DNA of 61,379 nucleotides, the filler included, from Candidatus Aminicenantales bacterium (GTDB taxonomy: Bacteria > Acidobacteriota > Aminicenantia > Aminicenantales > Saccharicenantaceae), in the NCBI GenBank assembly GCA_049512315.1. It is 4 parts of 4 records of this genome, joined end to end, with 100 filler letters (N's around TTAATTAATTAA, not from the genome) between each part and the next. Parts side by side here need not be neighbours in the genome. Positions count along the whole stretch, not along the records: positions 1 to 19,268 come from JBEKXF010000050.1; 3 more parts are not named here. The stretch is one strand, 5' to 3'. Below, one piece after another: positions 1 through 19,268 of this stretch. The notes beneath the pieces were generated by a model, which searched no databases, was not told the origin of the DNA, and worked only from the letters and a program-made list of their open reading frames with translations. Within the stretch, counting starts at the first letter, position 1, and the number at the start of each line of letters is the position of its first letter. The position numbers and the translations under genes are program-made.

Positions 1-40
1 GATTTTTACGCTAGAATCGGCGTCCGGGAAGGAGCGGAGG

Positions 41-136: not shown

Positions 137-163
137 ACCCGCCTTCTATGATAGCGAAACGCA

Positions 164-1995: not shown

Positions 1996-2003
1996 TCTAT
2001 CTC

Positions 2004-2933
2004 CTAATTTGAGTCATAGTCATATTTCCAGTCAGTTCGTTTCGTATTTTTCACCAGCTTCGCAGCATGGATAACATTCTCGGCGATCAATTTCGTTGAG
2101 CCTTCATAACATTCTCCCAGGACTATTTTTTTGTCTGCAAAGGTCGAGTTGCATACAGATGACATGGCATACATGTTGCTGAATGGCGGAAATAGCATGC
2201 CAAAATGATTGAAGGTCATAAATAAGTTTGAGATGACCATTGAAGCACCTTCTTCATGGCCTGTGACGATGACTCCCGCAACCTTACCGATGAATCTTCT
2301 CAGCATACCGCTCCCGGGCACATTATTGTCTGCCGTGAGCTCAACAAACTTCATATGCTTGATATTAAGCTCCTTATCCTTGGGGACTTTTGGGTTGGCT
2401 GGTTTCAGGCTTCCGTCCAGACTGATGCACCTGTCGATAAAAGCTTTCAGCGGCGTCGAGACGTTAAAATTATTCACAGGTGTTGCTATGATCAAACAAT
2501 CTGCTTCCAGGATCTTGTCATATAGAATATTGCTCATATCATCGGCTTTGGGCGTTCCCTTGGGGTAGCAGGAGCAGTAAAAGTGGCATTGCGTGTTGGT
2601 TGTCGAGTAGCACGCCTTGCAATGTTCTATCCGGAACTCCCTCAGTTTGATGAGCTCAGTTTCTGCTCCGAGTTCTTTGCAGTGCTCAAGACAGACTTTT
2701 AGAAGCTCTTCAGAATTTGATTCTTCCTGGGCCATGTCATACTTGTCCCTTGCAGAGCCGGATATGCCAAGGACCTTAATTCTCTTTGTCTCGCTTTTCT
2801 TTACGCCCATCAACTCCGCTTCTTTGACTGTTTCCCTCTGGATTTGCTTAAAGCGTCCCAATGTTTTGGCATCGACTTGAAGAATTTTCATCAGTTTCTG
2901 GTCGGACAACTTCTTGCTCGCCAATTCTTTCAT
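2004..2933 (-). CDS. Flavodoxin family / NADPH-dependent FMN reductase (iron-sulfur flavoprotein-like)
   Basis: VLGISGSAR, CKAC..C..C cluster, ADCLIIATPV, LKAFIDR. Confidence 0.85.
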   Translation of the reverse strand: MKELASKKLSDQKLMKILQVDAKTLGRFKQIQRETVKEAELMGVKKSETKRIKVLGISGSARDKYDMAQEESNSEELLKVCLEHCKELGAETELIKLREFRIEHCKACYSTTNTQCHFYCSCYPKGTPKADDMSNILYDKILEADCLIIATPVNNFNVSTPLKAFIDRCISLDGSLKPANPKVPKDKELNIKHMKFVELTADNNVPGSGMLRRFIGKVAGVIVTGHEEGASMVISNLFMTFNHFGMLFPPFSNMYAMSSVCNSTFADKKIVLGECYEGSTKLIAENVIHAAKLVKNTKRTDWKYDYDSN

Positions 2934-3168
2934 ACTCCCCTCCCTCTTCGACAGCCGGCAAAATCCGGCGCGAAGAAACTAACAACAATGACTCGCAAAA
3001 TAATTTTCTAACCTAAAAAAAGAACCAAATAGGGGAGCGCCTCATCGCCTGTCCGCTCGGCACGAGGCCCCGCTAATTGCAGCGCGACGTCGCAGGCTGG
3101 GCGGCGGCCGAGGCCGCCAGGATAACCGAGAATGCCTTCGAAGCGATGATGACCGCTAGTGCTTTTCC

Positions 3169-3513
3169 TCACGCGGACTTCTCCAAATACTCCTTCAGGG
3201 CGACCGCGTTGTTGTATTTCGTTTCCTTGGCCCCGTAGACGAGCGTCACCGTCCCGCGCTTGGCCTCCGCGAGAAGATCGGCGATTTCCTTCCGACCCTT
3301 CAATTCCCTAAAGTAACGCCGTTTGAATTCGCCCCATTTGTCAGGTTCGTGCCCGAACCATTTTCTCAGGCCGGTCGTGGGGGAGACCTCCTTCGTCCAG
3401 AGGTCGATCTTGGCCTTGTCCTTGGTCAGACCGCGCGGCCAAAGCCTGTCCACCAGCACCCGAAGCCCGTCGCCGGCTTCGGGCTCGTCGTACGCCCTTT
3501 TGATCTTGATCAT
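3169..3513 (-). CDS. DUF488 (YeaO-like) family protein
   Basis: IKRAYD..DGLRVLVDRLWPRG..LRKWFGH..NNAVAL. Confidence 0.92.
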   Translation of the reverse strand: MIKIKRAYDEPEAGDGLRVLVDRLWPRGLTKDKAKIDLWTKEVSPTTGLRKWFGHEPDKWGEFKRRYFRELKGRKEIADLLAEAKRGTVTLVYGAKETKYNNAVALKEYLEKSA

Positions 3514-3525
3514 GGCGCCGTCTCC

Positions 3526-3765
3526 TCAACCGAGGTCCAGAGTCCCGATCTCGGGGATGCGTTCGAGGACTTCCGACCCATGGGGCGCCATGGATTCCAG
3601 GTCCGCCGTCAGGTCCTTTCCGGCCTGATGCAGCCCTTGATGATCGCCGTCCGCCCAGAGGAGGCTCTTCGTAACGTCGTAGATTCTCCCCTTGTAGGCG
3701 ACGAAGGCGGGCTCCCCGTTCTCCCCGTTGTTCTTTGCCAGGTCATCTTGGCTCAAAGTTCTCAT
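3526..3765 (-). CDS. Cytochrome b5-like heme/steroid-binding protein
   Basis: NGENG..AFVAYKGRIYDVT..W..G.H...H.AGKDLT..APHG. Confidence 0.88.
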   Translation of the reverse strand: MRTLSQDDLAKNNGENGEPAFVAYKGRIYDVTKSLLWADGDHQGLHQAGKDLTADLESMAPHGSEVLERIPEIGTLDLG

Positions 3766-4001
3766 GAGATGAGTTTCTTCCCTTCATTGAAGACATGAAT
3801 GCAGGTCACCGGACAGCTTTCGGCGGCCGCGATGTTGCACTTCACGTCGTCCATTTCCAGCTCTTCGTTCTCGCCGACACCGGTCGAGTCGATGAGATGA
3901 GAGAGTCCGTCCCCGGCCATCTCCCAAAATTCGGGACAGATGGCGACGCAATTCTCGCAGGCGATGCACAGGGGCCTTTCGATCTCGACCTTGTAACTCA
4001 T
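3762..4001 (-). CDS. Single-cluster ferredoxin
   Basis: CIACENCVAICP and AAESCPVTCI. ATGA overlap with the next gene. Confidence 0.9.
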   Translation of the reverse strand: MSYKVEIERPLCIACENCVAICPEFWEMAGDGLSHLIDSTGVGENEELEMDDVKCNIAAAESCPVTCIHVFNEGKKLIS

Positions 4002-4027
4002 TTGAGGGCCAGATGTTTATCCCCTGC

Positions 4028-4468
4028 TCAGCCGGTCTTCCTGGCACGCAGAGTGATCGTCGTTCCGGCCAGGGCCCGGGAGACAGGACAGCCCGCCTTG
4101 GCACTTTCGGCCAACGCTTGGAAAGCCTTCTCCTCGATCCCCGGCACGTCCGCCTCGGTGGTCAGGTTCACAGCCGTTATCCTGAAGCCGTCCCCGACCT
4201 TCTCGAGGCCGACCTCGGCCTCCGTCTGGATGCGTTTCGGGGGCGTGCCGGCCTGGGATAGCATCAGCGCGAAGGCCATAGAAAAGCAGCCGGCATGCGC
4301 GGCGGCGAGAAGCTCCTCGGGATTCGTCCCCGGCCCCTGCTCGAACCGGGAGGCGAACGAGTACGGGCCCTCGTAGGCCCCCCGGCCCACTTTCATGCGG
4401 CCCCGTCCGTCCTTGAGCGAGCCTTCCCGTAATCGGAGCGATTGAAATGGTATTCCGGCCCCCGCCAT
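4028..4468 (-). CDS. osmC: OsmC-family peroxiredoxin, N-terminus possibly replaced
   Basis: YSFASRFE..GTNPEELLAAAHAGCFSMA..AKAGCPVSRAL. The first ~13 residues are atypical. Confidence 0.85.
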   Translation of the reverse strand: MAGAGIPFQSLRLREGSLKDGRGRMKVGRGAYEGPYSFASRFEQGPGTNPEELLAAAHAGCFSMAFALMLSQAGTPPKRIQTEAEVGLEKVGDGFRITAVNLTTEADVPGIEEKAFQALAESAKAGCPVSRALAGTTITLRARKTG

Positions 4469-4471
4469 GTG

Positions 4472-6118
4472 TCAAGAACTCAAAGTCCTAAGGGCCCGAG
4501 CTCTTCCTCGATCATCCCCCGGGTTGATCGGAATGCCGAACCCGCCGCCATCGGCGATATATTCCATCATCTCGCGCTCGCAGTCCTCCAACTCTTCCCT
4601 TGCCGCCGACTCCCTTTCGTGCCCGAGGTCCGGGTGCTCGTGCCTGTGGGCGACTAGTCCGGGCGTCGGCTGCCTTGCTACTATTCTTTTGCACACGTGG
4701 TAGATCGCCCCGGCCGCTGCCGAGGCCATGTCGTCATTGGCGTTCTTCGGGTGGTCGATCCTTTCGGCTCCACTGGGCAGCGTCTGGAGTTCGAGCCGCT
4801 TCAGCTGGTCAATCAGCTTTTTGTTGTCCAGAAGGACCACGGCTCCGGCTTGGAGGAGCGCCTTCAGCTTAAGGTAGAACTCCGTCGCGCTGGCCTTGCT
4901 CTGGCTCAGGGCGATTCGGTGCCGCCTGAGTTGGCTCTCTAGCGAGGCGAACGCGTACCTGTCGCCCCAGCACTCGTCGATTCCGTATTCTCGAAGAAGG
5001 CCGGCATATTCGTCGATGACCTGGATGAAGTCGAACGGGGGAACGTTCTCTCGGACAAGGTCTAGATAAACCATTTCGTTGGAGGCGTGGGCGATGGCCA
5101 GCGTCATGCTGTCGGTCTTGCCCGCCGACGCGTCGATGAAGGCAACGTATTTCATGCCCTTTTCAGGCGGTGTTTCTGAGCCCTTGGCCGCGGCCCGGAG
5201 CTTCTCCTCATCGAAGAGCGCCCCAATGTCGTCCCGGAAAACGGCCTCGTATTCGGCCCTGCAGCGTTCGGGGTCCCTTTCCATGTCTCGGGCGATCTTC
5301 CTGTCTGAGAAGGTCGGGTTCAGAAGTTTCGTCGGGGCCTTGAAGACGAGGGTGTCGGCGTCGTCTCGCCCCCAGAACTTTTCATGGAGAACCCAGAGTG
5401 ACCCCGCCTTCCTATTCGGGCTGGAGATTCCTATCAGCCGGCCGCCCGGGATGATCGAGGGCGTCAGGGCCGAAACGAGCTCGTCGACGTTGTCGTTCGG
5501 GAAGAACGCCACCTCGTCGAGGACGACCAGGGCAAGGCGCCAGCCCCTGACCGACCTGAAGTCCGACGCCTTGACCGCGATGTGGGCCCCGTTGGCGAGG
5601 TCGAGCTCGTCGTTCGTCTCGCGCCTGACGAGCCTCTGGAAGGGCTTGAGGAACCGCTTGATGTTGCCGAAGACGATGCCCGCCTGCTCCCGCGTGTCGG
5701 CCAGGCAGAAGATGTTCCACTGTTCGCCCGGGCCGACCTTCTTCTCCCAGCCGCCCAGGGCCGCCTCGTAGGCCGCCACGAAGCCCATCGTCGTGGACTT
5801 CCCGCCCTGCCTCCCGGCGATGATGAAAACCTCCTCGTAGCCCCCGGTCCTGGGGAACATGCGGCCCGTGCAAGTTCGGAAGATTTCGAGCTCGGGCGGG
5901 GTAAGCGGAAGACCGTAGATCGCCTTCAGGCAGACCACCCAGTTCGACCACGTCGCGGGGTCGTGGAACTGCTTCCCGAAGGCCCGCCTGTCGAGCATGG
6001 CCTCGACGATGTTCCCGGGGTGGGTCTTTTCGCTGTGGCGGACGCAGAACAGTTCGCCCCGGAGGGCCTTCATGCCGCAGGGGCGGCCGTCCACGCGGAG
6101 CGCCTGGCATTGGGCCAT
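4472..6118 (-). CDS. Terminase large subunit-like ATPase-nuclease with N-terminal CCCH zinc finger
   Basis: Walker A GRQGGKST, Walker B VVLDEVAF, motif III ISSP, RNase H-like FIDASAG..DS and C-terminal DDMASA. Confidence 0.85.
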   Translation of the reverse strand: MAQCQALRVDGRPCGMKALRGELFCVRHSEKTHPGNIVEAMLDRRAFGKQFHDPATWSNWVVCLKAIYGLPLTPPELEIFRTCTGRMFPRTGGYEEVFIIAGRQGGKSTTMGFVAAYEAALGGWEKKVGPGEQWNIFCLADTREQAGIVFGNIKRFLKPFQRLVRRETNDELDLANGAHIAVKASDFRSVRGWRLALVVLDEVAFFPNDNVDELVSALTPSIIPGGRLIGISSPNRKAGSLWVLHEKFWGRDDADTLVFKAPTKLLNPTFSDRKIARDMERDPERCRAEYEAVFRDDIGALFDEEKLRAAAKGSETPPEKGMKYVAFIDASAGKTDSMTLAIAHASNEMVYLDLVRENVPPFDFIQVIDEYAGLLREYGIDECWGDRYAFASLESQLRRHRIALSQSKASATEFYLKLKALLQAGAVVLLDNKKLIDQLKRLELQTLPSGAERIDHPKNANDDMASAAAGAIYHVCKRIVARQPTPGLVAHRHEHPDLGHERESAAREELEDCEREMMEYIADGGGFGIPINPGDDRGRARALRTLSS

Positions 6119-6126
6119 CGGCGGAC

Positions 6127-6714
6127 TCAGGCCTCCTGGAGACTTGCCCTTACGTCAGTAGGCAAGGCGAGCGGCCGTATCACCCTGGCCTTAACCATCT
6201 CGTCCAGCTTGGCCCTGATCGCCAGGAGGTCCCTCTTCGGCCGCAGTTCCCTGACGGAGACGACCCGCCGTTGCTCCTTCAGATAGCCAGGATGGCAGCC
6301 ATCCTGCATCCTCTCGACGGCTTCCTTGATAATCAGTTTCTTCACCCAAACAAGTGGATCGTCGATGTCCACGGGCGCAAGCCTGGGGACCCCACGATAT
6401 GCCGAGACGCTCTCCTGGTTTATTCTTAGCACTTCGTGCTCGTGGGCCTCGTTCACGATTTCCAGGATCCAGCGGCCTTCCCACGACGGGGGAGGCGCCC
6501 ATTTCGGGTTGACCTTGTGGCTCACGCTGCCGTCCTTCTCGAATACGATCCGGCTGTAGCGGGCATAGCTCGTCGTGGGCGCGATCGAGTGGATCCGCTT
6601 CGTCTCGCCCGGGCCGAGCCTCAGCATCTCCTTCCTGTACTCCAGGACGATCTTTTCCCCGTCGGTCTTGTTGACCAACTCGGTTTCAAACAAGTCATTA
6701 GGGTTTATTTCCAT
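6127..6714 (-). CDS. Hypothetical protein (paralogue of 6861-7385)
   Basis: 195-aa ORF with AGGAG SD. Shares collinear motifs with its neighbour. Confidence 0.8.
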   Translation of the reverse strand: MEINPNDLFETELVNKTDGEKIVLEYRKEMLRLGPGETKRIHSIAPTTSYARYSRIVFEKDGSVSHKVNPKWAPPPSWEGRWILEIVNEAHEHEVLRINQESVSAYRGVPRLAPVDIDDPLVWVKKLIIKEAVERMQDGCHPGYLKEQRRVVSVRELRPKRDLLAIRAKLDEMVKARVIRPLALPTDVRASLQEA

Positions 6715-6860
6715 TTGTTACTCCTAAAAGGGAATGGAGGGCGGGGCGGGAGCACGTTCCGTCAGGAGCAGACCCGGCCGCCCCCGTCCCGCCGCATTCT
6801 TTTGTTGCACCAGGCGATTTGAGAAGAGGAGCAGTTCGAATGAAGCCAGTTTCTGTCCTT

Positions 6861-7385
6861 TCATCTCTCGCTTCCCGCCTTCGCCAGAATCTCGTCAAGC
6901 CTCCTGAGGTCCGCCTCGCCGCGCTCGATCCAGTCGTCCCTGAGGCTCTCCCGCCTATAAGCGTAGCCTCGGAACGTCCTCGACTCGACCCATTCCGCGG
7001 TCACCGCGATGCGGAGCTCCTTGCAGGCGGCGAGCGGGGAGCTGAGCGGGCAGGACACGATGACCGGGATGCCGCGGGGGACATGGACCTCGCCGACGCC
7101 CTCGAGCTCCCTGGTCTCCACGTCCCCGCCGTCCATGTTCCTGAGGACGATGGGCCATTCCCCGAAGGCCGCCTGAGGCATTTCGAAGCCGGGGCGCGGA
7201 GTCAGGACGACGCCGCCGTCGGGCGCCCACTCGACGCGGGAATATCGGCTGTAGAGGGTGCGGGGCGAGACGCTCTCCAGGGTCCTCCTGTTGCCCGGAA
7301 GGATGGCGAAAAGGGGCGGGCCTGTCGTGTCCCAGACCGTGATCGGCCTGCTCGTAGAATTGATAAACTCGGTTTCGTATGTCAT
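6861..7385 (-). CDS. Hypothetical protein (paralogue of 6127-6714)
   Basis: 174-aa ORF with GGAGG SD. Shares collinear motifs with its neighbour. Confidence 0.8.
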   Translation of the reverse strand: MTYETEFINSTSRPITVWDTTGPPLFAILPGNRRTLESVSPRTLYSRYSRVEWAPDGGVVLTPRPGFEMPQAAFGEWPIVLRNMDGGDVETRELEGVGEVHVPRGIPVIVSCPLSSPLAACKELRIAVTAEWVESRTFRGYAYRRESLRDDWIERGEADLRRLDEILAKAGSER

Positions 7386-7587
7386 TTTCGTTCCCTCCGC
7401 ATAGACTAGGGGAAACGGATTCAGTTTCCGGGAGTTTTGGTAAATCGCTGGGGGGAGAGGGGGGCCTAAGGGGAATCGAACCTCTGACCGGAGTCGAAGT
7501 CCATGCGCCGCATGTTCAAATCAAGGCGGGGAGTAGGTCGTTTGTATCGCCAATTCAAGGTAGGTCTGGTGGGTTGATGAGAGAAAA

Positions 7588-10500
7588 TTAGCTGCCTGTC
7601 AGCCCGGCCAGCCGCTTCTTGGCGTCCTCAACCTCGGGCAGGCCGGCATCGGCGTCCTTCCAGAGGTCAAGGAATTTGCGGTAGTTCGTTATGGCCCGCG
7701 CCTTGTCCCCTTGCTGCTCGGCGATTTTGCCTAGCATGTAGAACGCCTTGGCGTAGATATCGCCGGGCCAAACCCTGCCCACTGCCAGCAGCGTGATCTT
7801 CTCGTATTCTTTGCGGGCTTTGTCTAAGGCCCCAGCCCTATAATAAGCCTGGGCCAGGCAATCAAAATAAAGAGCGTGCTCACTACCTACGAAATATTGA
7901 TTAGGAAGGAGAGATATGGCTTCGTTGAAATCATCAACAGCTTTGCTCAGGTTGTTTCTCTTGAGCTCGATTATTCCTTCCACGTTACGGTACATTCTCA
8001 TAAGTTTTTTGTTTAATCCTTTTTCTATCAGGGATCTCAGTTCGACCGCAGCCTGCTGGGCTCTATCTATCTGATTTCTCTCTAGGAATATCATAGCCCT
8101 CCAATAGATACAGCCTCGCTCATGAGCCGAGAAGTCGTTTACAGTGGCAACAGCCCAGGCCTTATCGCATTCTTTCAGGGCCTCTTCATAATTTCCCAAT
8201 TTCAGATGGAGATATGCCAAATATAGATGAAAACGTGATTCATAGGCCCACTGATTGAGCTCCTTCGCCTCATCAATTCCAAGGTCACAATGATTCTTTG
8301 CCACTCCAAATTTTCCCTGAAGCACACATAGAGTGGCCAAGCTATCCCTGCCTCTCAAGTGCACTATCTTTGCTTCTGACTCCAGCAGCGTTTCGAAGTC
8401 TTTTTCGGCCGTACTCAAGTTGCCTTGGCAGAGTGAAATCTGGCCTCTCAACAAGACGCTATCGTTATCACCCGGATTAAGCATGAGTGCCTTTCCCACT
8501 TCAAGGAGGGCAGGGGCGTATTCCCCCTGACAGAGATGGATGAGAGCAAGCTCCTGGCGCATATTGAAATTATCGCCGAAAGTTTTGATGTAGAACTCCT
8601 GAGCTTCTGTCGCTTTTTCGTATTGCCCCTTGGCCATATAATCAGATGCTATATCCGCATAAGGGTATATAGAAGAATCTTTATACTTAATTGCTGCTCC
8701 ACTCCGTTCAATGGCCTTATCCCACTCTTCTAAACCCATATAGAGTTCAGCACCGTTTATATTTCCAATGCGATCATCTGGATAAAGCTGCAGTAGTTTA
8801 TTATAGGTTTCAATAGCTTTGTCGTAGGTTCTTTCTGAGTACCTATAAAAATCACCTTGGATGATATAGCGCTCCCGCTCCGAGACCCGGTCGGACAATT
8901 CGAAGGCTTTTTGACGGTTCTTTTTAGATTCAGAATAATATCCGAACTGATCATAAGCAATAGCTAAGCTCCTGTAGGCCATGGCAAACCCAGGGTCGAT
9001 AGCTATGGCTTTTTCCATCAGCGGTATGCTTTTGCGATACTCATAATTCGTGTGATATCTTCTGGCTTCACTATAATACTTATACGCTTCCGGAGAAGTG
9101 GTTGTGATCTTTCCAACCTCCATATCGTGGTCTGCAGCTATCTGATCCGGCGTGAGGTTCATGTCCGACTTGATTGTCCTGGCCAGCTCATCCACTTTGG
9201 CAAAAATCTCTTTCTCGCCGTTGCATTCAATATTAAGGGGGCTTATGACTTCTCCTGTGCGAGGTTTCTGAAGCGTCAGGGTCATGATGATCGTTTCCCC
9301 GGCTTTCATCAGGCTCCCGCTCAATGTGTAGACAGCCCCTCCTTCGTCGGCCACCTTGACCAGGTCTTCTGTGGAATATTTCTTGGCTTCCTGAAGATTC
9401 AGCCTTCTTAAAATACTGAAGATCCTGTCGCTGCTCAGAACACTGATGAATTTTGATTGGGAGAGCTTTGTAATGAGCAACTCAGTTAGCCCGGTCTTCC
9501 AGGCATCCAGGCTCTTGTCTCCGGAAATGTTTTCAAAGTAGACGATGGCAAGAGAGGGTTTGCCCGAGGGAGGAGGAACGATATGGTGTTTGGGGAGGAA
9601 ACGCCAGATGACCAAGGCAATGAGGGCAAAGGCCGCGACTCCCAGAGCCGGAATCAAGAGCTTCTTTGCCCCAAAGGTCACCGTGATTTGCCTAGAGGTG
9701 AGCGGCTTTCTCTTGGGGATTTCGTGAGCCGTCGTCGGGAGACCCTTTTCTATATTCTCGAGTTCTGATCTCACGTCGTCGGCACTCTGATATCTCTTGC
9801 TCTTGTCCTTCTCCAGGCAGCGAAGGACTAGACGGCTGAGGTCATCCGGAATCTGATCGTTGAACTCTTTGGGATCTTTGGGCTTTTCAGTCTTGTGTTT
9901 CACGGCGATGCTGAGCGGCGTATCGCCTTCGAACGGAGCCCGGCCCGTCAACATCTCGTAAAGAACGATTCCCAGAGAATAAATGTCCGATCGCTGATCC
10001 GCTTCTTTCCCCTCGACCTGCTCCGGGCTCATATATTCTGGCGTCCCGATGACCACACCCTCGCCGGTCAGGCTTTTGCCGTGAAGCGATCTGGCAATCC
10101 CGAAATCCATTATCCGGGCATTGCCCTCCCTGTCGATGATGATGTTGGAGGGTTTGAGATCCCTGTGAATGACTCCCAGCCGATGAGCCTCCGCCAGCCC
10201 CTCGGAGATTTGCTTGGCGATGGCGATTGCTTTCCCGATCGTCAACTGGCCTGTCTGCCTGATCAATCCTCTCAGGTCCTGTCCCGCCACGTATTCCATG
10301 GTGATGAAGTAGGTCCCCTTCTCCTCCCCAAGGTCAAACATGCGGCAGACATTCCTATGGGATATCATCCGGGTCGTTTTCAATTCGTTGCTGAACCGTT
10401 CGATCGTATTCTTATCGGAAGAGATTTCCGGCTTGATAAGCTTCAGGGCGATCTCTGCCTTGATCTTCTTGTCCTCTACCCGGTATACTTTGCCCATCCC

Positions 10501-10698
10501 ACCCCGGCCGAGCTCCTCGATGATCTCGTACCTTCCTGCAATTGTGGTTCCTCTGCTTAACTCATGAACGGGCGTCTGGAGGGTTTCTGTCATGACCGGA
10601 GGGTTAGCCTTGGGCGAAGGTAGCTGGGTGCCACAATCGGCGCAGAACTGCTTGGTTTCTGGATTCTCAGAATGACATTTCGGACACTTGATGGCCAA
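7588..10698 (-). CDS. Zn-ribbon / Hanks-type Ser/Thr kinase / TM / TolB-N-like / TPR receptor kinase, 1036 aa
   Basis: CPKC..CADC, LGRGGMGKVY, ALK, HRDLKPSN, DFG and GTPEYMSPE motifs, one hydrophobic TM segment, then TPR repeats. Confidence 0.95.
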   Translation of the reverse strand: MAIKCPKCHSENPETKQFCADCGTQLPSPKANPPVMTETLQTPVHELSRGTTIAGRYEIIEELGRGGMGKVYRVEDKKIKAEIALKLIKPEISSDKNTIERFSNELKTTRMISHRNVCRMFDLGEEKGTYFITMEYVAGQDLRGLIRQTGQLTIGKAIAIAKQISEGLAEAHRLGVIHRDLKPSNIIIDREGNARIMDFGIARSLHGKSLTGEGVVIGTPEYMSPEQVEGKEADQRSDIYSLGIVLYEMLTGRAPFEGDTPLSIAVKHKTEKPKDPKEFNDQIPDDLSRLVLRCLEKDKSKRYQSADDVRSELENIEKGLPTTAHEIPKRKPLTSRQITVTFGAKKLLIPALGVAAFALIALVIWRFLPKHHIVPPPSGKPSLAIVYFENISGDKSLDAWKTGLTELLITKLSQSKFISVLSSDRIFSILRRLNLQEAKKYSTEDLVKVADEGGAVYTLSGSLMKAGETIIMTLTLQKPRTGEVISPLNIECNGEKEIFAKVDELARTIKSDMNLTPDQIAADHDMEVGKITTTSPEAYKYYSEARRYHTNYEYRKSIPLMEKAIAIDPGFAMAYRSLAIAYDQFGYYSESKKNRQKAFELSDRVSERERYIIQGDFYRYSERTYDKAIETYNKLLQLYPDDRIGNINGAELYMGLEEWDKAIERSGAAIKYKDSSIYPYADIASDYMAKGQYEKATEAQEFYIKTFGDNFNMRQELALIHLCQGEYAPALLEVGKALMLNPGDNDSVLLRGQISLCQGNLSTAEKDFETLLESEAKIVHLRGRDSLATLCVLQGKFGVAKNHCDLGIDEAKELNQWAYESRFHLYLAYLHLKLGNYEEALKECDKAWAVATVNDFSAHERGCIYWRAMIFLERNQIDRAQQAAVELRSLIEKGLNKKLMRMYRNVEGIIELKRNNLSKAVDDFNEAISLLPNQYFVGSEHALYFDCLAQAYYRAGALDKARKEYEKITLLAVGRVWPGDIYAKAFYMLGKIAEQQGDKARAITNYRKFLDLWKDADAGLPEVEDAKKRLAGLTGS

Positions 10699-10796
10699 GC
10701 GAGTTCCCCCTCCTCGAGCCTGGCCTCAGATTAGCAGAGGGATGGGCGGGAAGTCAACCAAAGCGGATTCGAACCCATTCCGATGGGAGTAACAAT

Positions 10797-11663
10797 TTAG
10801 TCCCGGCGAACGTCCCTATTCGCTCTGGCTCCAACGATTTTGCCCGCTTTGCAGCGGACTTCGTCTTCCCGCCTGGCCAGTTCCGCCTCGGCCTCCGCCC
10901 ACAATTCGTCGACCTGGGCCTCGGTCACGGGTTCCGTCGGGGCCTTGCGCTTAAGCATGGAAATGGAAGCCGGAGACAGGCCGAATATCTCGGCCAGCTC
11001 TTTCCCTTCGAAGGTGTCCGTGATGCCGGTCCGCAGGAGCCGCCGGATCAGGATGCGCCTCTGGTCTTTCAGGCTGGGGAGGGTCAGCCTGCGGTCGGCG
11101 TTCTCCAGGGTGACGGCGGCAAAGAAGAGCTCGATGGCCCGGTCGGCGGTCATCCGGCCGGCCTCCACTTCCGCGAAGAGGCGTTTCAAAAAGCGCAGTT
11201 CTTTTGACCCTCGGGCCTCAATCCAGCCCTTGGCCAGGGGAAGGGCCGGGGCTTGCGCTTCGGCGGGCTCTAGGCCCGTCTCGCCGGCCTCCAGCAGGGC
11301 TTCGGGGTTTGCATCTGCGTGCCTTCCGAGCTGAACGCCCTCCGGATAGGCCTCCTCGTTTCCCTCGTTATCTGCTTTGAGCCTGATCTGGCTGGCCCAG
11401 CAGACGGCGGCCTTGTTTTCCTTTAGCCGCCGGTATTTTATGGCCTGGAGGTAGTTCCTCCAGTCGCCCTTGCTCGCGGGCCAGCCGCGCCACCGGCCCG
11501 AGGCGACGAAGTCCTGGATGAGGTCGTCGGCCTCGTAGAGCCCGTCCCTGAGCGTGAGGCAGTCCCTCAAGTCGCGGAGGACCTCGAAGGCCATGACGTT
11601 CATGGCTCGCCTGGCCTCGGGGGACGGTCCCTCGATTGTCATAGGTCTGTTTTGGGTTTCCAT
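10797..11663 (-). CDS. Hypothetical protein with C-terminal helix-turn-helix
   Basis: GKELAEIFGLSPASISMLKRK HTH pattern. Starts 8 nt after the recombinase stop. Confidence 0.65.
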   Translation of the reverse strand: METQNRPMTIEGPSPEARRAMNVMAFEVLRDLRDCLTLRDGLYEADDLIQDFVASGRWRGWPASKGDWRNYLQAIKYRRLKENKAAVCWASQIRLKADNEGNEEAYPEGVQLGRHADANPEALLEAGETGLEPAEAQAPALPLAKGWIEARGSKELRFLKRLFAEVEAGRMTADRAIELFFAAVTLENADRRLTLPSLKDQRRILIRRLLRTGITDTFEGKELAEIFGLSPASISMLKRKAPTEPVTEAQVDELWAEAEAELARREDEVRCKAGKIVGARANRDVRRD

Positions 11664-11671
11664 TTAAATCC

Positions 11672-12283
11672 TCAAAGAAATCTCGCTGACCGCCGTTCCA
11701 TTTCCCTTTCATGTTCGGCGGTGTTCATGTCCGATAAATATCTCTCCGAACTTGCCAAGTTCTTGTGCCTGAGCCACCTGGCGATCTGCACGAGCGAGTC
11801 GCCCTTGGCCGCCATCTGGCTCGCGCAGGTGTGCCGGAGGTCGTGGGGGCTGTGGGGGTTCGCGAGCCCGGCCTTCCCGCAGGTCAGCTGAAACAGCTTC
11901 CACCCCGACTCCTGGGTCATGTGGCCGGTCCTGGGCAGCACCTTTGACGGGAACAGGTGGGGGTTTTCCTTCGCCTCCGGCCGGCCCGCCCTCTCCTTCA
12001 GCCACGCCCTGAGCTTCCTCTCGAGCCTCTCCGGGATGTCGTAGGTCCTCGAGAGCCCGCCCTTCTCCGCCCTGACCGTGATCTGGTGGGCGTCGAGGCC
12101 GACGTCGTCCAGCCGGAGGGAGACGGCCTCGCCGATCCTCATCGCGAAGAAGTACACGAGCGACCAGAGGCAGTCCCACTTCCTCCCGTGCCTCCTGGCC
12201 GCCTTCATGAAGGCCTCGAGCTCTCCGTCGGTGAAGTACCGGACCCGGCCGTTTAGGGCCGTCCCTTTGGGGCGTCCGGCCAT
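11672..12283 (-). CDS. Minimal tyrosine recombinase (catalytic domain only), 203 aa
   Basis: AMRIGE (R), EKGG (K), HDLRH, LRHKN (H), SERY (Y). Confidence 0.92.
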   Translation of the reverse strand: MAGRPKGTALNGRVRYFTDGELEAFMKAARRHGRKWDCLWSLVYFFAMRIGEAVSLRLDDVGLDAHQITVRAEKGGLSRTYDIPERLERKLRAWLKERAGRPEAKENPHLFPSKVLPRTGHMTQESGWKLFQLTCGKAGLANPHSPHDLRHTCASQMAAKGDSLVQIARWLRHKNLASSERYLSDMNTAEHEREMERRSARFL

Positions 12284-12284
12284 C

Positions 12285-12650
12285 CTACTTCCCCTTTTGT
12301 TTGCCGAAGTATTTCAGGTTGTTCGCCTCGAGGATCTTCAGGTCGGCGCGGAATGCCGCATCGCCCTTCCCGGCTTCGTTATTCGCAAGGCCTTGGCACT
12401 CGATGATGAACTCGACCGCCATCTTCCGGTTCCCCTTCGGCGGCTGGCCGGCCCATCGTTCCCGCGCAATGCGCGCGGCGATGCCGGCGATGACTTCGTC
12501 CCCGTGGGACCTGTCGTCCGTCAGGTAGTCGACGGCCTCGGGAAGCGAATCGAGCCCGTGGGCCTCAGCGACCGCCTCGGCACCGGATCTTTTCCCCTCC
12601 TCAGGCTCGGCCTTCGCCTTCGCTTGGGTCTTGACATTGGCTTGTTTCAT
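12285..12650 (-). CDS. Hypothetical protein
   Basis: ATG at 12650 with GAAGGAGG SD. Its stop abuts the recombinase start. Confidence 0.7.
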   Translation of the reverse strand: MKQANVKTQAKAKAEPEEGKRSGAEAVAEAHGLDSLPEAVDYLTDDRSHGDEVIAGIAARIARERWAGQPPKGNRKMAVEFIIECQGLANNEAGKGDAAFRADLKILEANNLKYFGKQKGK

Positions 12651-13146
12651 TCGCGTGCCCTCCTTCAGCACTCGAGAATAGGTATACCGTGAAAAAGTGA
12701 GCTTGCACATAGCCTAACTAAAAAATTTGCAACTCTTGCTTCCTCCCCAGGTATGGCCGGCCTGGGAGGGGGCGCCCAAAATCGGGGCAAAAATTTGCTT
12801 GGGGCACCAAAAGGGCCTTCGGGGCGTCAAAAGACTCGCGCATCGCCCCATACGGCGGCCGCCGGACGGCCCCCGTTCGCCCCAGGTCGCGTCCGGACGG
12901 CCCGGGCAAGCATAGGGCAAGGGCCCGCCCCGCCTTGGGCCCCCTGGGTGATCCGGGGGAGGGGCGTGCGGGCGGGGAGTTATACCCAGGGAAATGTTTT
13001 GATTATGCCTGATTCGGCCATATCGCAGACTCTATTTAATTTGTAGGTTTTACAGGGATCGGCTTGTCTCTTACGGATTTCATTCAGAATTGATTCAAAA
13101 TGGTTCGGCCGGATGTAGACCTTGCAGATAGGTGTTGCCGAGAGAG

Positions 13147-14043
13147 TTACTGCCGCTGTGTTTTAAAAGCGCTGGGGTAAGCTTTAATAAGCCGGCTAGA
13201 ATCATCCCCATCTATTACGCCATAATAAATCGCGGAACCTTCAATTGCCGATTTCGCCCTGGCAAATTCGATCATTTGCTCGACTACCGACTCATGAATT
13301 TGCCCCCAATACTGCACGACAAACACACTTGCGGCACTCTTGAAAAGGCGCTGTATCTGGTCTCCATTCTTTCCCATTTTTTTTGGTGTTAAGATGCCTG
13401 TGGTACCTTTTCCCTTAAATGCAAAAGCTGTCGGCATGCGGCGACTGAGCACGCGCAATCGGGTCGTAAAGAGGTCGTTTCGTTCGCCTCCCCAATCTTG
13501 AAAATCGCCTACCTCGCCCATAATTTTCTTAATGCCTTTCTTGAAACGCTGTTCAGGCATCGGAACATACGCGCCCGGCTCAACACGCATCCCTACAACT
13601 TTGTCGAACGAATCGATATCGTCGATAGTTATGTTGTGGGCAAGAACGCGATTCTGTGCAAAACGAATTTTAATATTACCTTGTTTGTCTACCTTCGGCT
13701 GGGTTTTTGTGGGGAGTTTAGAAAATGCCCGTGGGTTTCTTACATATCTTAGTATTTCGTTCTTCCGGCGCGAGTAAAAACGGTCTTTCTGATAACCCGT
13801 CTGACCGGCTAGCCTGATTTGTTTTACGATTCCATTGTCTGCAAGGACCAATGCTGCGGTTAATACTTGCTTCCTGTCTAACCCGGTAGTTTGGGCAATT
13901 TCATTGACAAACTTAGTGTGCTTTTTGCCCCGGTAAATCGCCTTGAATACTATTAGCCTTTGAGGAGATTTACCTAAGACTTTGACTGCGTGTGCAACTT
14001 GCTCGTTACTATTTGACCGAGCGTCTGAAACGCTGATTGGCAT
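13147..14043 (-). CDS. Winged-HTH plus putative PD-(D/E)XK (Mrr-like) nuclease-fold protein, 298 aa
   Basis: N-terminal VNEIAQTTGLDRKQV..L.DNGIV HTH. C-terminal E..DWGGERNDLF..FAFKG..DQIQRL..IDG pattern. The fold call is inference. Confidence 0.6.
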   Translation of the reverse strand: MPISVSDARSNSNEQVAHAVKVLGKSPQRLIVFKAIYRGKKHTKFVNEIAQTTGLDRKQVLTAALVLADNGIVKQIRLAGQTGYQKDRFYSRRKNEILRYVRNPRAFSKLPTKTQPKVDKQGNIKIRFAQNRVLAHNITIDDIDSFDKVVGMRVEPGAYVPMPEQRFKKGIKKIMGEVGDFQDWGGERNDLFTTRLRVLSRRMPTAFAFKGKGTTGILTPKKMGKNGDQIQRLFKSAASVFVVQYWGQIHESVVEQMIEFARAKSAIEGSAIYYGVIDGDDSSRLIKAYPSAFKTQRQ

Positions 14044-14047
14044 CTAT

Positions 14048-14248
14048 CTATTTTTTTGAAGACCGTTTCACTTTGCGCTTGGCTAACATGCGACTAACAA
14101 CGCTCTCATGAACGCCCAATGCTGAAGCTACGTCTCTGCCCTTGACTCCTGATGTTATGAGTTGGAGGATTAGCAGGCGTTTGATGGCTTCAAGTCCATC
14201 AGCCATTGGATCTCCCTTTGCCTTCTTAGGCTTTCTTTTTGCCGCCAT
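14048..14248 (-). CDS. Small HTH protein
   Basis: GVKGRDVASALGVHESVVSRML; GGAGG SD. Confidence 0.75.
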   Translation of the reverse strand: MAAKRKPKKAKGDPMADGLEAIKRLLILQLITSGVKGRDVASALGVHESVVSRMLAKRKVKRSSKK

Positions 14249-14423
14249 CGCCCTTGCCTCCTTTGGGAATGCCCTTTAAGAGGTCATTCACCCATGCTTT
14301 CTGTTTCCCCACGGTTCTCGCGATTTTATCTTGTGGGGCGCCCATTGAGAATAGTTGAAAGACGAGTATCTTTGTAAGAAGGTTGATGATCTCCTTCTTC
14401 TCTTCGGTTGCTTTCTTTGGCAT
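14226..14423 (-). CDS. Small HTH protein (distant paralogue of 14048-14248)
   Basis: GAPQDKIARTVGKQKAWVNDLL. ATG at 14423 with GGAGG SD. Confidence 0.72.
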   Translation of the reverse strand: MPKKATEEKKEIINLLTKILVFQLFSMGAPQDKIARTVGKQKAWVNDLLKGIPKGGKGDGGKKKA

Positions 14424-14442
14424 TCTTTCCTCCCCCAATATT

Positions 14443-14502
14443 CCTAACTAGATTCTGACCTAACTTATAAATAATCCTAACAAAGTGAAGTTGCTAGTAC
14501 AA
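14443..14502 (-). promoter_or_regulatory. Sigma70-type promoter with three GTTAGG direct repeats (putative operator)
   Basis: TTGTAC (14502-14497), 17 bp, then TAGGAT (14479-14474) preceded by TGn. CCTAAC on + at 14443, 14459 and 14476. Confidence 0.6.
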
Positions 14503-14804
14503 GCCCTTCACAAAGCCAATGAGAAAAAACGGAAATTTCTGCCGTCGATTATTGTGAGGCAAACATCCGCTCAGCGTCCCGCGTTTGAATGGGGAGCGCC
14601 CCCATTTGAACCCGAATGTTCAAGACGGCACCCGGCCCGACCGGCTGCTGACTGGCCGCCGACAAAACCGGGCCAGGGGGGTCTCTTAGCAGTTAGAGGG
14701 CCGTCTGATAGAGAAGGGTAAAGCCCCCTCTAAGGAACTTATTCTCGGCCCGTTTTAGCCGAACTCAAGCGCGGCTGTGCCCTTCCTTGCCCCATGCAAA
14801 GGGG

Positions 14805-14928
14805 AGAAGGTAAGAAAGTAAAAACTTGCTTTCGGGTTCTTCCCCAAAATTCATCTCCTTTTCTACCAGTCAACATGCGACTTTTTGGGCAAGTGTCGGA
14901 AAATACCTTCTTACTTTCTTACTATCTT
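14805..14928. repeat. Inverted octamer iterons, putative replication origin
   Basis: ACCTTCTT/ACTTTCTT/ACTATCTT tandem at 14905-14928 and inverted AGAAGGT-AAGAAAGT at 14805-14819, directly downstream of the primase-helicase. Confidence 0.6.
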
Positions 14929-14937
14929 AGGCTTTCT

Positions 14938-17792
14938 TCAGCTCTTCCTCCCCTCCCTAGGCCATATATCCAGCCAATAGTCCTTGCCGTTTTCTTGCAA
15001 CCCCCAAGCTTCGAGGCCGGCCTTCTCCACCGTTTCGTTCAGCAGGCACGGCAGGTCCTTCGCCTGGCTGGGGTCCATGCCCAGGGCATCCATCAGTTGC
15101 TCTGCCGAGATAAGGAAATCGTGGTCTTGATCCTCTGTGGGGCCTAGTGAGTATTCCCTCTGGTGGTCGGCGCGCGTGAATATATCCATCGTAAATTCGC
15201 GCGCCAGCTCTCCCTTTATGTTCGCCAGGTGCTTGGCCATGGACATGGGGCTCTTGTAGTACTTCTGGAAGTCCTTCAGCTTCATCTCCTCCGCGTTATC
15301 GACCATAAGCTTGTACAAGTCCTGCGGAGACAGGGATCTTATTCTCTCGCGCTTATCGTAGATGACGTAGCGCAGGATAAGATAGAAGTAGTCGTCCTCG
15401 ACGGCGAACAGGTCCTTCTTCTCGTTCATCTTCTGCATGATCAGGCGGAACAGGAACTTGAGGCCCCAGCCGCAAACGGTCCTTCCGAAGCACTCCCGTC
15501 TGCCACCCGCGAGATGCACGTGGGCGGCTCCCAGTCCGGGCCCTGCAGGCGCATGTAATCCTGCTCGGCCCGCAGGATCTTCACCACCGAGTTTAAATTC
15601 ACTAAGGCTTCGGTCATGATTGCCGAACGGCGTTCGAGCAGCGTGCGGACAAGGTAGGCGCGGGGCATGGGATTATCGATCTTCTTCGTGTTGAACAGCA
15701 TCAGCCGGCTCACGAAGTCGTCCCGCTTGAACTTCGGCTCCCGCGAAGTGATGGCGATGAAGCAGTGGGGCGTGGCCCGGACGACATCGATGTCCGTGTA
15801 AAGCTTCCTCTTCTCCACGGTCCCGCCGGTGGCCGCCACGCAGAGCACGTTCAGGACGTCGGCCTCGATGTGCTTGTCGAGGTTGTCGAAAACGACGTAG
15901 TGGTTGCGCACCAGCACCGTCTTGAGGTCCTCGGCCGTGCCCGGCTCGTGGCGGCTCTCGAACCTGTCCCCGAAGAAGATCTTCCCAATCGAGGTCGCGA
16001 TGAAGCTCTTGCCGCTCTCTTTTTGGCCGACGAAGCAGGCGATCGGCTTGTCCCTCATGATGGATTCGAAGAACAGGGAATAGAAGACGATGACGAGCAG
16101 GAACTTCTGCTCCTCCGGGCATAGGGGGTTTTCCTGGTCCTCCGTGAACGAGGCTCGGTCGATGAGGAACTGCTTCAGCAGGCTGCCGTCGCGGCAGAAG
16201 CGTTCGAGCGATAGTCCGAGGCGGCTTGACGAGGGAAACGTTATCTTCGTTCCGCCGACTTCGATGGCCGCCTCGGGCCTGAACGCCTCGAAATAGTTGA
16301 CCGCCTTCTGCTCCGGGTCGAAAGCGAACGGCGCGAGCGTCGGGTCGTATTCGAAGAACACCCCGTCGACGCCGTTCATGTAGCGCTCGACCTTTTCTCC
16401 GTCGAGCCGGTAGACGCCGTTATCATGGTCGCTGATGTACAGGACGAGCTTCTCGGGGTCCCAGTAGGCGAACCGGCGAGGCGTCACCTTCTCCCGCAGC
16501 TTCCAGTTGATGACGGTCTTGATCTCGTCCCGGATCTCGCAGAAGTCCCGCTCAGGGACGCTGTACCGGTTCCTCACGTAAGTGTAGAAATCGGTGCCGT
16601 CGACGCCCATCAGGATCTTCTCCTCGTTGTCGAAGAAGTAGTACAGGTCCTGTTCTCCGTCCTTGAACCCCCTCCCTGCGGCGTTCTCGCTCAGAAGGAG
16701 GTCGGTCGTCACGAAGCGCAGGATCGCCTTCCGCTTTTCATCGGCGGTGAGCCCCTTCTCCCGCCTGATTTCCGAGATGCGGCGCGACCCGGGGGCCTCT
16801 TCCTTGCTCCTCTGCTCGATGTAGGCCAGCCCCTTCCGAACGTCCCATTGCAGGTCGGCCTCGCCTGACGCCATGATCCGGTCCGAGCACCCGAGGAAGG
16901 GGTTGAAAAACACGCTCTTGATCGTCTCGTAGTCGTACCCGCCCGCGGCCAGGGAGCAGATGATTGACATGTCCCTCCCGCTTCGGGTTTTGTCTCCCGC
17001 CTTCGTTTTCAAGAGGGCGCCCGTTAGGATCAGCTTTTTCGTCCTGGACTCGACCTGGAGCCTCTCGACGTCGGCCTTCGCCGCTGCGGCGTCCCTTAGG
17101 CTGACGGTCAGGGTCTTGGTGCCGAAGGCGGGTAGCGGCTCATCGAGTCCGGCGGGCTCCTGGTAGCCGGCGTCCTCGAACCGCTCGAAATCCTCCAGCC
17201 CGTATGCCTGGTCCGTGAGGGCCAGAATCCGGCATGCGATGGGCCCTCCTTCCTTGATGTTCAGGGTGCCAGGAAGCCTGAGGCAGGAGTCGAGGTTCAC
17301 CCTGCTGCGGTCGGCCCCCAGTTCCTTCACGAGCCCGGCAAGGATCCGCTTGAACCGGAACCTCTGTTCACCGGCCAGGCCGATGATCGGTTCGGCTAGT
17401 ACCCAGTAGCAGTGACAACCGTGGCCCGAGTCGACCACGATGGACGGGGCGATTGGGAATCCCTGCACGCGCCGCAGTGCCTCTTCCTTGCCCCCCTCGA
17501 AGTCTTTCCCGTCGACGTCGGCCCACAGGCAGACGATGTCCTTGATGTCGTCTTGTTTCTTGGCTTGGCTGAGGGGCCGGGGGTTCACCCCGAGATAGAC
17601 GTGGCAAGCAGCGTTGCGCTGATTGATTTCGGCCCAATTTTCCTCGCCGACCTCGCCACGGCGGCAGAACTTAGAGACGACGTCTTGGCCGACGAACCTG
17701 AGTTCAACATGGCCATCGTTGTCCTTGAAGTAGTTAGAAAATACGGTCTCGATGAAGCGGTTAGCTTCCAGAAGATTCTTCGTGGTTTCCAT
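14938..17792 (-). pseudogene. RepB-like (AEP) primase fused to helicase-like ATPase, split by a 1-nt frameshift
   Basis: LWADVD, DSGHGCHCYW, LRLPGTLN, Walker A GQKESGKS and VVFDN. Restoring one T between 15497 and 15498 joins the two ORFs as RVADWECFG. Confidence 0.8.
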
Positions 17793-17949
17793 TAGTTTCT
17801 CCCATTAGTTCAAATTTCCGTCCTTGATAGATCTTCCCGTCAAGGGGTTGCCCTGTGCGAAGGTTGTTCACGTAAAGCTGGCGGATGCACAGGAAAGTCA
17901 CGCCATCTTCAGTGATGAGAATTAGTTTGGCTTGATGCTTTGTGTCCAT
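17761..17949 (-). CDS. Hypothetical protein
   Basis: 62-aa ORF with GGAGGT SD, overlapping the primase start. Confidence 0.55.
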   Translation of the reverse strand: MDTKHQAKLILITEDGVTFLCIRQLYVNNLRTGQPLDGKIYQGRKFELMGETNGNHEESSGS

Positions 17950-17962
17950 GACACCTCCCTTT

Positions 17963-18217
17963 TTATTTTTCTTTGAATACCAGGTTGCAAGCCTCGATGC
18001 CTGAGTCTGGGTCGGCCTCTTCCGAGACCACTTGCAGTAGCTCCAGGATTTTGTTGTTGAGCCGGTCTCGCTGTTCGAGACCGCACTGTTTGAAAGCAGC
18101 GCCTATCTCTTCGTGTTTGGCGCTCATCTCGACGAGTTGGGCCTTGACGTTTTCGATGGCCCTCTCCACGTTTGGAGGTTGGAATTCTTCCGAATTCTGG
18201 TCTGAGCGATGATTCAT
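17963..18217 (-). CDS. Hypothetical protein (helical)
   Basis: 84-aa ORF with AAGGAG SD, first gene of the replication operon. Confidence 0.6.
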   Translation of the reverse strand: MNHRSDQNSEEFQPPNVERAIENVKAQLVEMSAKHEEIGAAFKQCGLEQRDRLNNKILELLQVVSEEADPDSGIEACNLVFKEK

Positions 18218-18425
18218 GTCGACTCCTTATAAGTTTATATTTTTATAGGGCAATGGATGCCCTGCGGGTAGACGTCCGGGGTTAGAACTGCGTGGATTCG
18301 ATAGATCAGAGACTGGGTGCTTGGGAGGGAAAGTACTGTTCTAAAATGGCCACAGAAGGCCCGCCAAACCGCAGCACCCGAAACGCAAACCTTTTCGAAG
18401 CCCCTCTTATATTCTAAGAGGGTGT

Positions 18426-18746
18426 AGGGGAGATAAAGATTTAATTATTTCTGAAAAGTGTTTCGGGAACGGTTTTCTCTATTGTGCTTTCTTAAAGTTC
18501 CCCCTTAATGGCGTAAGGGGGATAAGGGGGATTAGGACATCAAAACAAAGTCTTGGGACGCGTCTTTGTTCTTGAAATACCGACCTTTCCAAGCTCCTCA
18601 ATTACAGAGGGGGATAAGGGGGTTAAGATCTAAGAAAAAGGTCTTGAGAGGCGCTTTTGTGGTCCCTCTTGTTCTTTAGGCACGAGTAGGCAGGATTAGG
18701 CAATTTTAGGCGAATTTTGTGACGTACAGGTGACGCGGGTGTGACG
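18426..18746. repeat. ~91-bp degenerate repeats followed by helically phased TAGGC x4 and GTGACG x3
   Basis: AGGGGGATAAGGGGG at 18516 and 18608 (degenerate copy at 18426). TAGGC at 18677/18687/18697/18707. GTGACG at 18719/18730/18741. Confidence 0.75.
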
Positions 18747-19133
18747 CGGTCTGTGCCTGCCGTCCGGGGCCCCCGGGGGTATGGGACCAACGCCGCGATC
18801 GTGCGCGGAAGGGGCGATCGTGACCTCTAAAAATATTCACCATAGTTTTCATTAAAGGGCCCTGTTCTGCTAATACTCCAACGGTCTTACCCTAACTCCC
18901 GACAAGTGATCTATGCACCTGCCAATATGCGACGCCTGGCGAAGCACCTCCCGGGATCTCATCTTTCCGGATTTTTTGGCAATCAACTCATGGAGGCCGG
19001 CCCTTGCCCCTCTTCATCATCCATCCTGTTTTTTATTAATATCTTGATCAGGTCAGGGCACGATCCGGCTTGACGCCGGCGGGAGGATATTCCAGAATGA
19101 GAGGAGGACAAGAGGCGAGGTTCGAGGTCAATA

Positions 19134-19268
19134 ATGCGGATACTGATCATCGAGGACGAAGGCAAGATCGCTGCGTTTCTCAAACGGGGGCTCAAGGAAG
19201 AAGGTTACGCTGTGGATGTGGCTGCCGACGGAGAGCAGGGCTATTTCCTGGCCTCCACCCAGGACTGC
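19134..19268 (+). CDS. OmpR-family response regulator, truncated by contig end
   Basis: MRILIIEDEGKIAAFLKRGLKEEGYAVD. Confidence 0.88.

Follow-up and report, generated by a model that had tools for sequence, protein, structure and literature searches.

A putative methylase-free nuclease operon with small helix-turn-helix genes in a Candidatus Aminicenantales genome, and its relatives in uncultured bacteria and archaea

A three-gene operon in the genome of a Candidatus Aminicenantales bacterium (Acidobacteriota; GenBank assembly GCA_049512315.1) belongs to a widespread unnamed module that probably provides a nuclease for defence or addiction, free of any methylase and governed by small regulators of its own. 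The stretch of DNA in which it was studied, here 'the window', is 61,379 nucleotides (nt) long, with positions 1-19268 representing one contig of the genome (JBEKXF010000050.1). On the minus strand at 13147-14423, three co-oriented open reading frames (ORFs) encode, in order, a 65-amino-acid (aa), a 66-aa and a 298-aa protein; the first two are small helix-turn-helix (HTH) proteins, termed distal and proximal in relation to the third gene, and the third combines a winged helix with a restriction-endonuclease-fold domain. An earlier note, made from the sequence alone, had described a compact AT-rich operon, and this is borne out by the layout and by a GC content of 0.463 over 13147-14438, lower than in the two flanks (0.640 and 0.600) and in the contig as a whole (0.556). 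The reading favoured here, to which we give an even chance, is that the large protein acts as a DNA endonuclease of Mrr architecture, independent of any methylase, and as a type IV-like or abortive effector whose expression is controlled by the small HTH proteins.

The arrangement of the genes speaks for joint expression. The distal gene has GGAGG 5-6 nt before an ATG at 14423 (a mechanically called ORF reaches a TTG at 14438), and the proximal gene overlaps it by 23 nt, with AAGGAGG 8 nt 5' of its start. For the proximal protein, the longer reading of 66 aa is supported by its relatives, which keep the basic N-terminus and are without the internal Met. The 298-aa gene begins 4 nt past the proximal stop codon and, as read from the sequence, lacks a Shine-Dalgarno of its own, which together with the short gap suggests coupled translation. 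The overlap, the Shine-Dalgarno placement and the tight spacing thus point to a single operon with coupled translation. Just upstream of its first Shine-Dalgarno, GTTAGG occurs three times within 39 nt (Table 1), a cluster comprising three of the eight GTTAGG sites in the window; this triple pattern, picked after being seen, has one match in the window and none in 100 shuffles, and no palindrome was found in the stretch that holds it. All six sequencing runs listed for the operon are peat or wetland metagenomes, none being on record as RNA. A separate observation in the same region is an exact 14-nt direct repeat at 14224-14237, at the distal-gene stop, and at 14925-14938, at the stop of the ORF for the C-terminal part of a primase. 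Between these two copies lie 0.7 kb in which both the distal gene and the promoter region are contained; at 14414-14427 there is a third, 86% identical, and the repeats may be a recombination or duplication scar.

Table 1. Features of the operon, in window coordinates
Feature	Position	Strand	Basis or remark
Distal small HTH gene, 65 aa, subfamily B	14226-14423 (stop codon included)	minus	ORF and subfamily B hidden Markov model
Proximal small HTH gene, 66 aa, subfamily A	14048-14248	minus	ORF and HTH_23 match
Gene for 298-aa winged-helix and PD-(D/E)XK-fold protein, putative endonuclease effector	13147-14043	minus	ORF, homologues, structure models
N-terminal winged-helix domain of the 298-aa protein, residues about 11-105	13729-14013	minus	
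C-terminal PD-(D/E)XK-fold domain of the 298-aa protein, residues about 161-294	13162-13563	minus	invariant E164, E187, D190, K210, Q229
Three direct GTTAGG repeats, spacing 17 and 16 nt	14443-14481	minus	candidate operator or promoter region

That the 298-aa protein consists of a winged helix and a restriction-endonuclease-fold domain, the latter holding a candidate active site that is conserved, is supported by structure models and by comparison with relatives. Two models were made, one of the whole protein and, since the winged helix filled the list of structural matches to that model, one of the C-terminal 159 residues alone, with 56 sequences. The latter has a predicted local distance difference test (pLDDT) value of 93 and a predicted template-modelling (pTM) score of 0.88, and the models uphold the N-terminal winged HTH and C-terminal nuclease-fold domain proposed earlier. 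In structural comparison of the domain model with the PDB, type IV enzymes came out on top, MspJI (6.9; 4f0q) and AspBHI (6.1; 4oc8). Also matched were, at 7-10% identity, AF1548 (1y88), the title of whose entry gives no function, and the cleavage domain of FokI (2fok), an enzyme that is part of a restriction-modification (R-M) system with methyltransferases. Non-catalytic restriction-endonuclease-like domains of the RPB5 type were among the matches too. The best matches in BFVD, though weak, are named 'Restriction endonuclease' or Mrr.

Searches of other kinds returned little. Foldseek against the PDB gave nothing at E ≤ 0.001 for either model, and sequence searches of the PDB with the 298-aa protein, single and profile, gave winged-HTH matches only. 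Beyond weak matches in the winged-helix region, nothing credible was found for it in Pfam, NCBIfam, PHROGs or PADLOC. In particular PADLOC-DB v2.0.0, a check that the earlier note had proposed together with Foldseek, yielded no component match, its weak matches being Csa3 (1e-4) on residues 11-123 and, for a small protein, CARF3 (0.0028). A Pfam match to ERp29_N (6.9e-5), seen in 4 of 46 family members, was judged spurious.

Alignment with 46 relatives, 32-53% identical to the window protein, gives the candidate active site its definition. Seven columns are invariant, E164, E187 (in a DWGGE stretch), D190, K210, G211, G224 and Q229, with each of E164, E187, D190, K210 and Q229 present in 46/46, and D281 is kept in 43. 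In the model the first helix begins with E164, ahead of the first core strand come E187 and D190, K210 lies at the end of the next strand, and D228 and Q229 are on the helix that follows. The spacing of acidic residues, Lys and Gln that had been picked out by eye in the single sequence is therefore a conserved feature of the family, and so is the absence, noticed at the same time, of the canonical second acidic residue, whose place is taken by Ala (A208) in 42 of the 46. To judge from the sequences, E187 or D228/Q229 may compensate. Mean pairwise identity is 45% in the nuclease domain versus 29% in the winged helix, and faster divergence of the winged helix is to be expected if specificity diversifies.

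Basic tails are evident in the translations of both small proteins and the proximal one matches HTH_23 at 6.9e-5, in agreement with the earlier description of the pair. Their paralogy, also claimed, is seen by profile comparison of the subfamilies to which they belong (A against B by hhalign: probability 97%, E 9e-11, 45 columns) but not by BLASTP, which finds no match between the two. When 147 small members of the family were scanned with Pfam, HTH_23 was matched by 54, Sigma70_r4_2 by 48, GerE by 17 and HTH_3 by 13, and there are weak matches to HTH_38, HTH_7 and HTH_28 besides; by these matches they appear to be generic tri-helical HTHs. The upstream small genes were examined over 80 genome loci that encode relatives of the 298-aa protein at 36-75% identity (L numbers below denote individual loci; L006 and L007 are overlapping contig ends of one locus, so that the independent loci number 79). 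The small ORFs upstream sort into three related subfamilies, A, B and C, of which A is mostly nearest the nuclease gene and has a P-x-R-K-V-K tail, while C is longer.

Hidden Markov models (HMMs) of the three subfamilies were run against all 6,890 small ORFs of the loci. In 72 of the 80, a total of 194 matches fall within 1.3 kb upstream on the strand of the nuclease gene, a zone that makes up 4.8% of the strand-bases; as the seeds were taken from the same loci, this count is partly by construction, and it is the paucity of matches elsewhere that serves as the control. Those elsewhere number 66, nearly all of them slightly further upstream, just downstream, or divergent. The usual order is C..C, B..B, A and then the nuclease gene, with one to six small genes in those 72 loci and, over all, from none to six or more per locus. 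The B-A form of the window recurs in its closest relatives (L001, L002, L022), and relatives of the distal gene sit upstream of the nuclease gene in other loci. In a converse search with the proximal protein alone, the nuclease gene was beside it in seven of eight metagenome loci, and among the seven are one that matches the window at 100% identity and one in which the nuclease gene is convergent. A profile search gave 575 A-type proteins of 53-91 aa, whose most specific names are 'predicted transcriptional regulator' and, in error, 'IS30 transposase'. As to orientation, the nuclease gene is convergent with a small gene in L116, and in L008, L010 and L056 entire small-HTH arrays are on the opposite strand, divergent from it.

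The arrays have additional members. One further gene type encodes small winged-HTH proteins of about 100 aa (95-145 aa) that have no Pfam match at 1e-8. Such winged-helix-like proteins are found in L012, L018, L019, L043-L046, L063, L078 and L024, are at times encoded directly upstream of the nuclease gene, and in one group conserve an A-C-D-G motif. Genes for HEPN proteins also accompany the arrays, those of the Ymh family (PF09509) in L008, L034, L046, L060, L071 and L078, and Swt1-like ones in L022, L061 and seven BLAST-cluster relatives. HEPN genes were further noted in or beside the arrays of L004, L006, L009, L029, L051, L056 and L065; several array HEPN genes share a helical N-terminal extension, and in L060 the HEPN gene is between the B and A genes. 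Both the Ymh and the Abi2/Swt1 HEPN families have been tied to R-M operons, according to the part of the source drawn on here (PMC3710099). The trio, for which a test of recurrence had been proposed, does recur as a gene set that is widespread, but as a variable array with one to six small HTH genes and sometimes HEPN genes; the unit is no fixed trio, and the window operon is a short, reduced B-A form of it.

Homologues of the 298-aa protein number 1417 at E ≤ 0.001; every one is labelled 'hypothetical' and has no Pfam domain. At 50% identity the family comprises 1082 clusters, of which 167 reach E ≤ 1e-30. Close relatives are 59-96% identical to the window protein. The family comes mainly from uncultured bacteria and archaea of soil, peat and groundwater, and the loci are in Acidobacteriota, Verrucomicrobiota, Planctomycetota, Nitrospirota, Actinomycetota, Bacteroidota, Chloroflexota, Proteobacteria and several lineages of the candidate phyla radiation (CPR), and among archaea in Thaumarchaeota, Halobacteria, Bathyarchaeia and Woesearchaeota. 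Isolates account for just two of the 80, one being Chryseolinea serpens DSM 24574 and the other a Leptospira. The former (L033) and a Chryseolinea metagenome-assembled genome (L035) carry the module in synteny, flanked by DUF2264 and peptidase M13 genes and with 87-89% DNA identity; it comprises the nuclease gene and a small-gene array of C-C-C or C-B-C, and is therefore stably inherited there. Longer, fused versions of the nuclease domain were sought without success, which is weak evidence. Two hypothetical proteins of about 340 aa, from a Rhodococcus plasmid (L094) and Gordonia pKB1 (L095), share with the family the C-terminal nuclease-fold domain only, at 31-33% identity; they have another N-terminus and are encoded near helicase-related and MobF genes.

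The surroundings were scanned with a simple ORF caller of our own, which yielded 387 genes of at least 110 aa within 3 kb at the 80 loci. A DNA methyltransferase gene is within that distance at four of them (L008, L038, L043, L052), and none was found in the window element, as the earlier note had remarked. Neighbours of conflict or mobile type include PIN, HigB, Gp49, AbiEii, Ymh and Swt1 HEPN, GmrSD_N, Fic, putAbiC and NYN; others are type I and ISP R-M genes, integrases, serine recombinases and transposases, with recombinase-type genes adjoining L022, L030, L038, L041, L050, L051, L076 and L079. Clustering of the neighbours revealed no large partner common to most loci, the top cluster, of ABC ATPases, being present at 11 of the 80.

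Comparison with known systems starts from Mrr, in which a winged helix comes first and a PD-(D/E)XK domain second (Pfam Mrr_N and Mrr_cat). The window protein resembles it in its size of about 300 aa, in the same order of N-terminal winged helix and C-terminal PD-(D/E)XK domain, and in being stand-alone, without a methyltransferase. By eye there is also likeness to 11 Mrr_cat domains, in an acidic G-rich loop, a beta-hairpin, an x-x-K and a (D/E)-I-Q helix. Of the Mrr signature D...(Q/E)xK, the D and the K have invariant counterparts in D190 and K210; at the position two before the Lys, however, the window protein has Ala instead of Q/E/S. Neither for the window protein nor for the 46 members do the listed families include Mrr_N, and a six-frame search of its own genome with PF04471 (Mrr_cat) gave no match. 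To our knowledge, an upstream array of small HTH genes is not a described feature of Mrr.

The restriction genes controlled by C proteins, of the C.PvuII and C.AhdI type, offer a parallel on the regulatory side. Here as there a small HTH gene is directly upstream of, and co-transcribed with, the gene for a restriction-fold nuclease (co-oriented at 72 of the 80 loci), and a repeat-bearing promoter region is present. The window operon differs in having no methyltransferase, and the arrays in having up to six paralogues rather than one; the HTH of C proteins is Xre-like, here it is sigma-region-4-like or HTH_23-like (HTH_3 in 13 of 147), and the repeats are direct, not palindromic.

The closest published kind found is that of the modification-dependent endonucleases with a fused winged helix, DpnI, FcyTI, Psp4BI, HhiV4I and others, as far as the part of the account by Helbrecht et al. 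(2024, PMC11037411) used here extends. With these the window protein shares a winged helix plus a nuclease domain, the scarcity of methyltransferase neighbours, which that part of the account uses to call such enzymes type IV, and modularity. Against this, the enzymes there that have a PD-(D/E)XK domain carry their winged helix C-terminally, while in the window protein it comes first, and the small HTH genes that accompany the window family go unmentioned in the portion concerned (PMC11037411). The architecture had been put forward as unrecognised; that stands in so far as no Pfam, NCBIfam or PADLOC model covers it, but the Mrr layout is analogous, and so are these type IV enzymes (PMC11037411). 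A keyword search of open-access article text, supplements being outside its scope, found no account of the module.

In the favoured reading of a methylase-independent, Mrr-architecture endonuclease, the N-terminal winged helix would select DNA and the C-terminal PD-(D/E)XK domain would cleave it, with E164, E187, D190, K210 and D228/Q229 as the candidate site. Since there is no partner methyltransferase, it would act on modified or foreign DNA, in the manner of type IV enzymes, or on any DNA once released, as an abortive or addiction effector. The small sigma-region-4-like HTH proteins, co-transcribed and translationally coupled, would be transcriptional controllers of the nuclease gene that bind the repeat-bearing promoter region and hold the nuclease low. 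Nuclease activity, a DNA substrate, repression by the small proteins and a role in defence or addiction are what we infer from the folds, the conserved residues and the gene order. A complex prediction for the nuclease and the proximal small protein scored 0.00, run without controls, and is evidence neither way.

A number of findings count against this reading. The window protein has no match to Mrr_cat (PF04471) at E ≤ 0.1, Mrr_cat is absent from the 25 families listed of 55 matched by the 46 members at E ≤ 1, and hhalign against 11 Mrr_cat domains from related genomes gave probabilities of 0.2-0.5%. The protein being Mrr by architecture but not by sequence, it is suggested to work like Mrr and is not filed as a member. 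A208-x-K210 replaces the usual (D/E/Q)-x-K, and both the 298-aa protein and the proximal small protein are basic (isoelectric points 10.3 and 11.2). The GTTAGG repeats, besides being direct rather than palindromic and seen post hoc, were not found upstream of the arrays in six relatives examined. Many loci are embedded among housekeeping genes. No relative was found in IMG/VR contigs, and the phage and plasmid collections gave one and two partial C-terminal matches respectively, to proteins that are hypothetical or unannotated. Finally, simple repression does not explain arrays of up to six paralogues, one controller being enough.

An autoregulated type II toxin-antitoxin (TA) operon is a rather unlikely alternative, in which the nuclease would be a toxin bound inactive by one or more of the small HTH proteins and freed on loss of these labile partners. 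The layout fits, small DNA-binding genes being upstream of, and overlapping or coupled with, the gene for a larger enzyme, as do the compact mobile cassette, the variable contexts, often beside PIN, HigB, AbiEii and Gp49 genes, and the tight converse association (7/8). A bicistronic pair, however, is one-to-one, and here the small genes range from none to six or more in three subfamilies, often many though two in the window; the partners are both strongly basic, moreover, and the 'toxin' has a winged helix, a DNA-binding domain, of its own. Less probable again would be a selfish or housekeeping nuclease of mobile DNA, free-standing and of homing type or for recombination or resolution, which would propagate its own cassette, with the small HTHs as site-recognition or excision-type factors. 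The wide phyletic spread at the identities given above, across many phyla, CPR and archaea, does point to frequent transfer; in L017 the module, together with an AbiEii gene, is inserted between pheS and pheT; integrases, serine recombinases and transposases are beside several loci; and HTH_23, HTH_38, HTH_7 and HTH_28, to which the small proteins weakly match, are of transposase or resolvase type. Yet a look around the cassette revealed neither terminal repeats nor target duplications, there is a single copy in the genome, most loci have no recombinase nearby, and the module is vertically kept in the two Chryseolinea species.

The missing middle acidic residue (A208), the RPB5-type non-catalytic domains among the structural matches and the fact that all array genes encode predicted DNA binders are what would be expected of a transcription factor whose degenerate nuclease-fold domain serves dimerisation or ligand sensing, the array being a multi-layer regulatory cascade. 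This we consider very improbable. Invariance of E164, E187, D190, K210 and Q229 in 46 diverse members is hard to explain without catalysis, and the module has no conserved regulated targets beside it, its neighbours being heterogeneous.

None of these readings, the favoured endonuclease one included, accounts well for the number of small genes and the ordered way in which they differ, and this is the basis for a bolder proposal, tentative though it is and with the balance of probability against it. The small genes would form an HTH-array conflict system, with fast-diversifying tandem sigma-region-4-like binders (C, B, A and the small winged HTH) and interchangeable effectors, among them the Mrr-architecture nuclease and the Swt1 and Ymh HEPN RNases. 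The small proteins would then be combinatorial sensors, decoys or targeting adaptors, not plain repressors, and uncultured lineages of bacteria, CPR and archaea would harbour the system.

Within the window, the operon has a primase-helicase gene on one side and a tyrosine integrase gene (PF00589, 5e-25) on the other. The former is broken into two overlapping ORFs on the minus strand, one of 783 aa (15441-17792) and one of 193 aa (14938-15519); each of its paralogues, here and in related genomes, is one ORF of 905-969 aa, and the split is a frameshift or an assembly error. A TerL-like protein of 548 aa is encoded 7 kb from the operon (4472-6118, minus strand; phrog_2, 7e-30), and its homologues adjoin primase elements in L108 and L109. 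Between the TerL-like and integrase genes there is a 1036-aa kinase/TPR-like ORF (7588-10698). The genome has three paralogous primase-helicase elements at 48-64% identity, that of the window (C50) and two others (C2, L105; C5, L106), with differing genes downstream of the primase gene. In C2 that slot holds a LexA-like S24 gene, a gene for a 663-aa C5 DNA methylase with two methylase stretches, and unassigned genes of 231, 254 and 365 aa. The presence of different genes in the same slot of paralogous elements supports a variable cargo slot of a phage-related integrative element; the more specific placing, next to the replication origin of a satellite, does not find support.

With more than 1000 sequence clusters and no Pfam, NCBIfam or PADLOC model, and with hosts that are mostly uncultured, the family is missed by current censuses of defence systems; Chryseolinea serpens DSM 24574 is a cultured carrier. 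If the reading as a methylase-independent endonuclease is true, the family would add a methylase-free nuclease class with the architecture of Mrr and a sequence not recognisable as such. It also raises the question of why up to six paralogous mini-HTH genes should precede a nuclease gene, and why HEPN RNases join the arrays.

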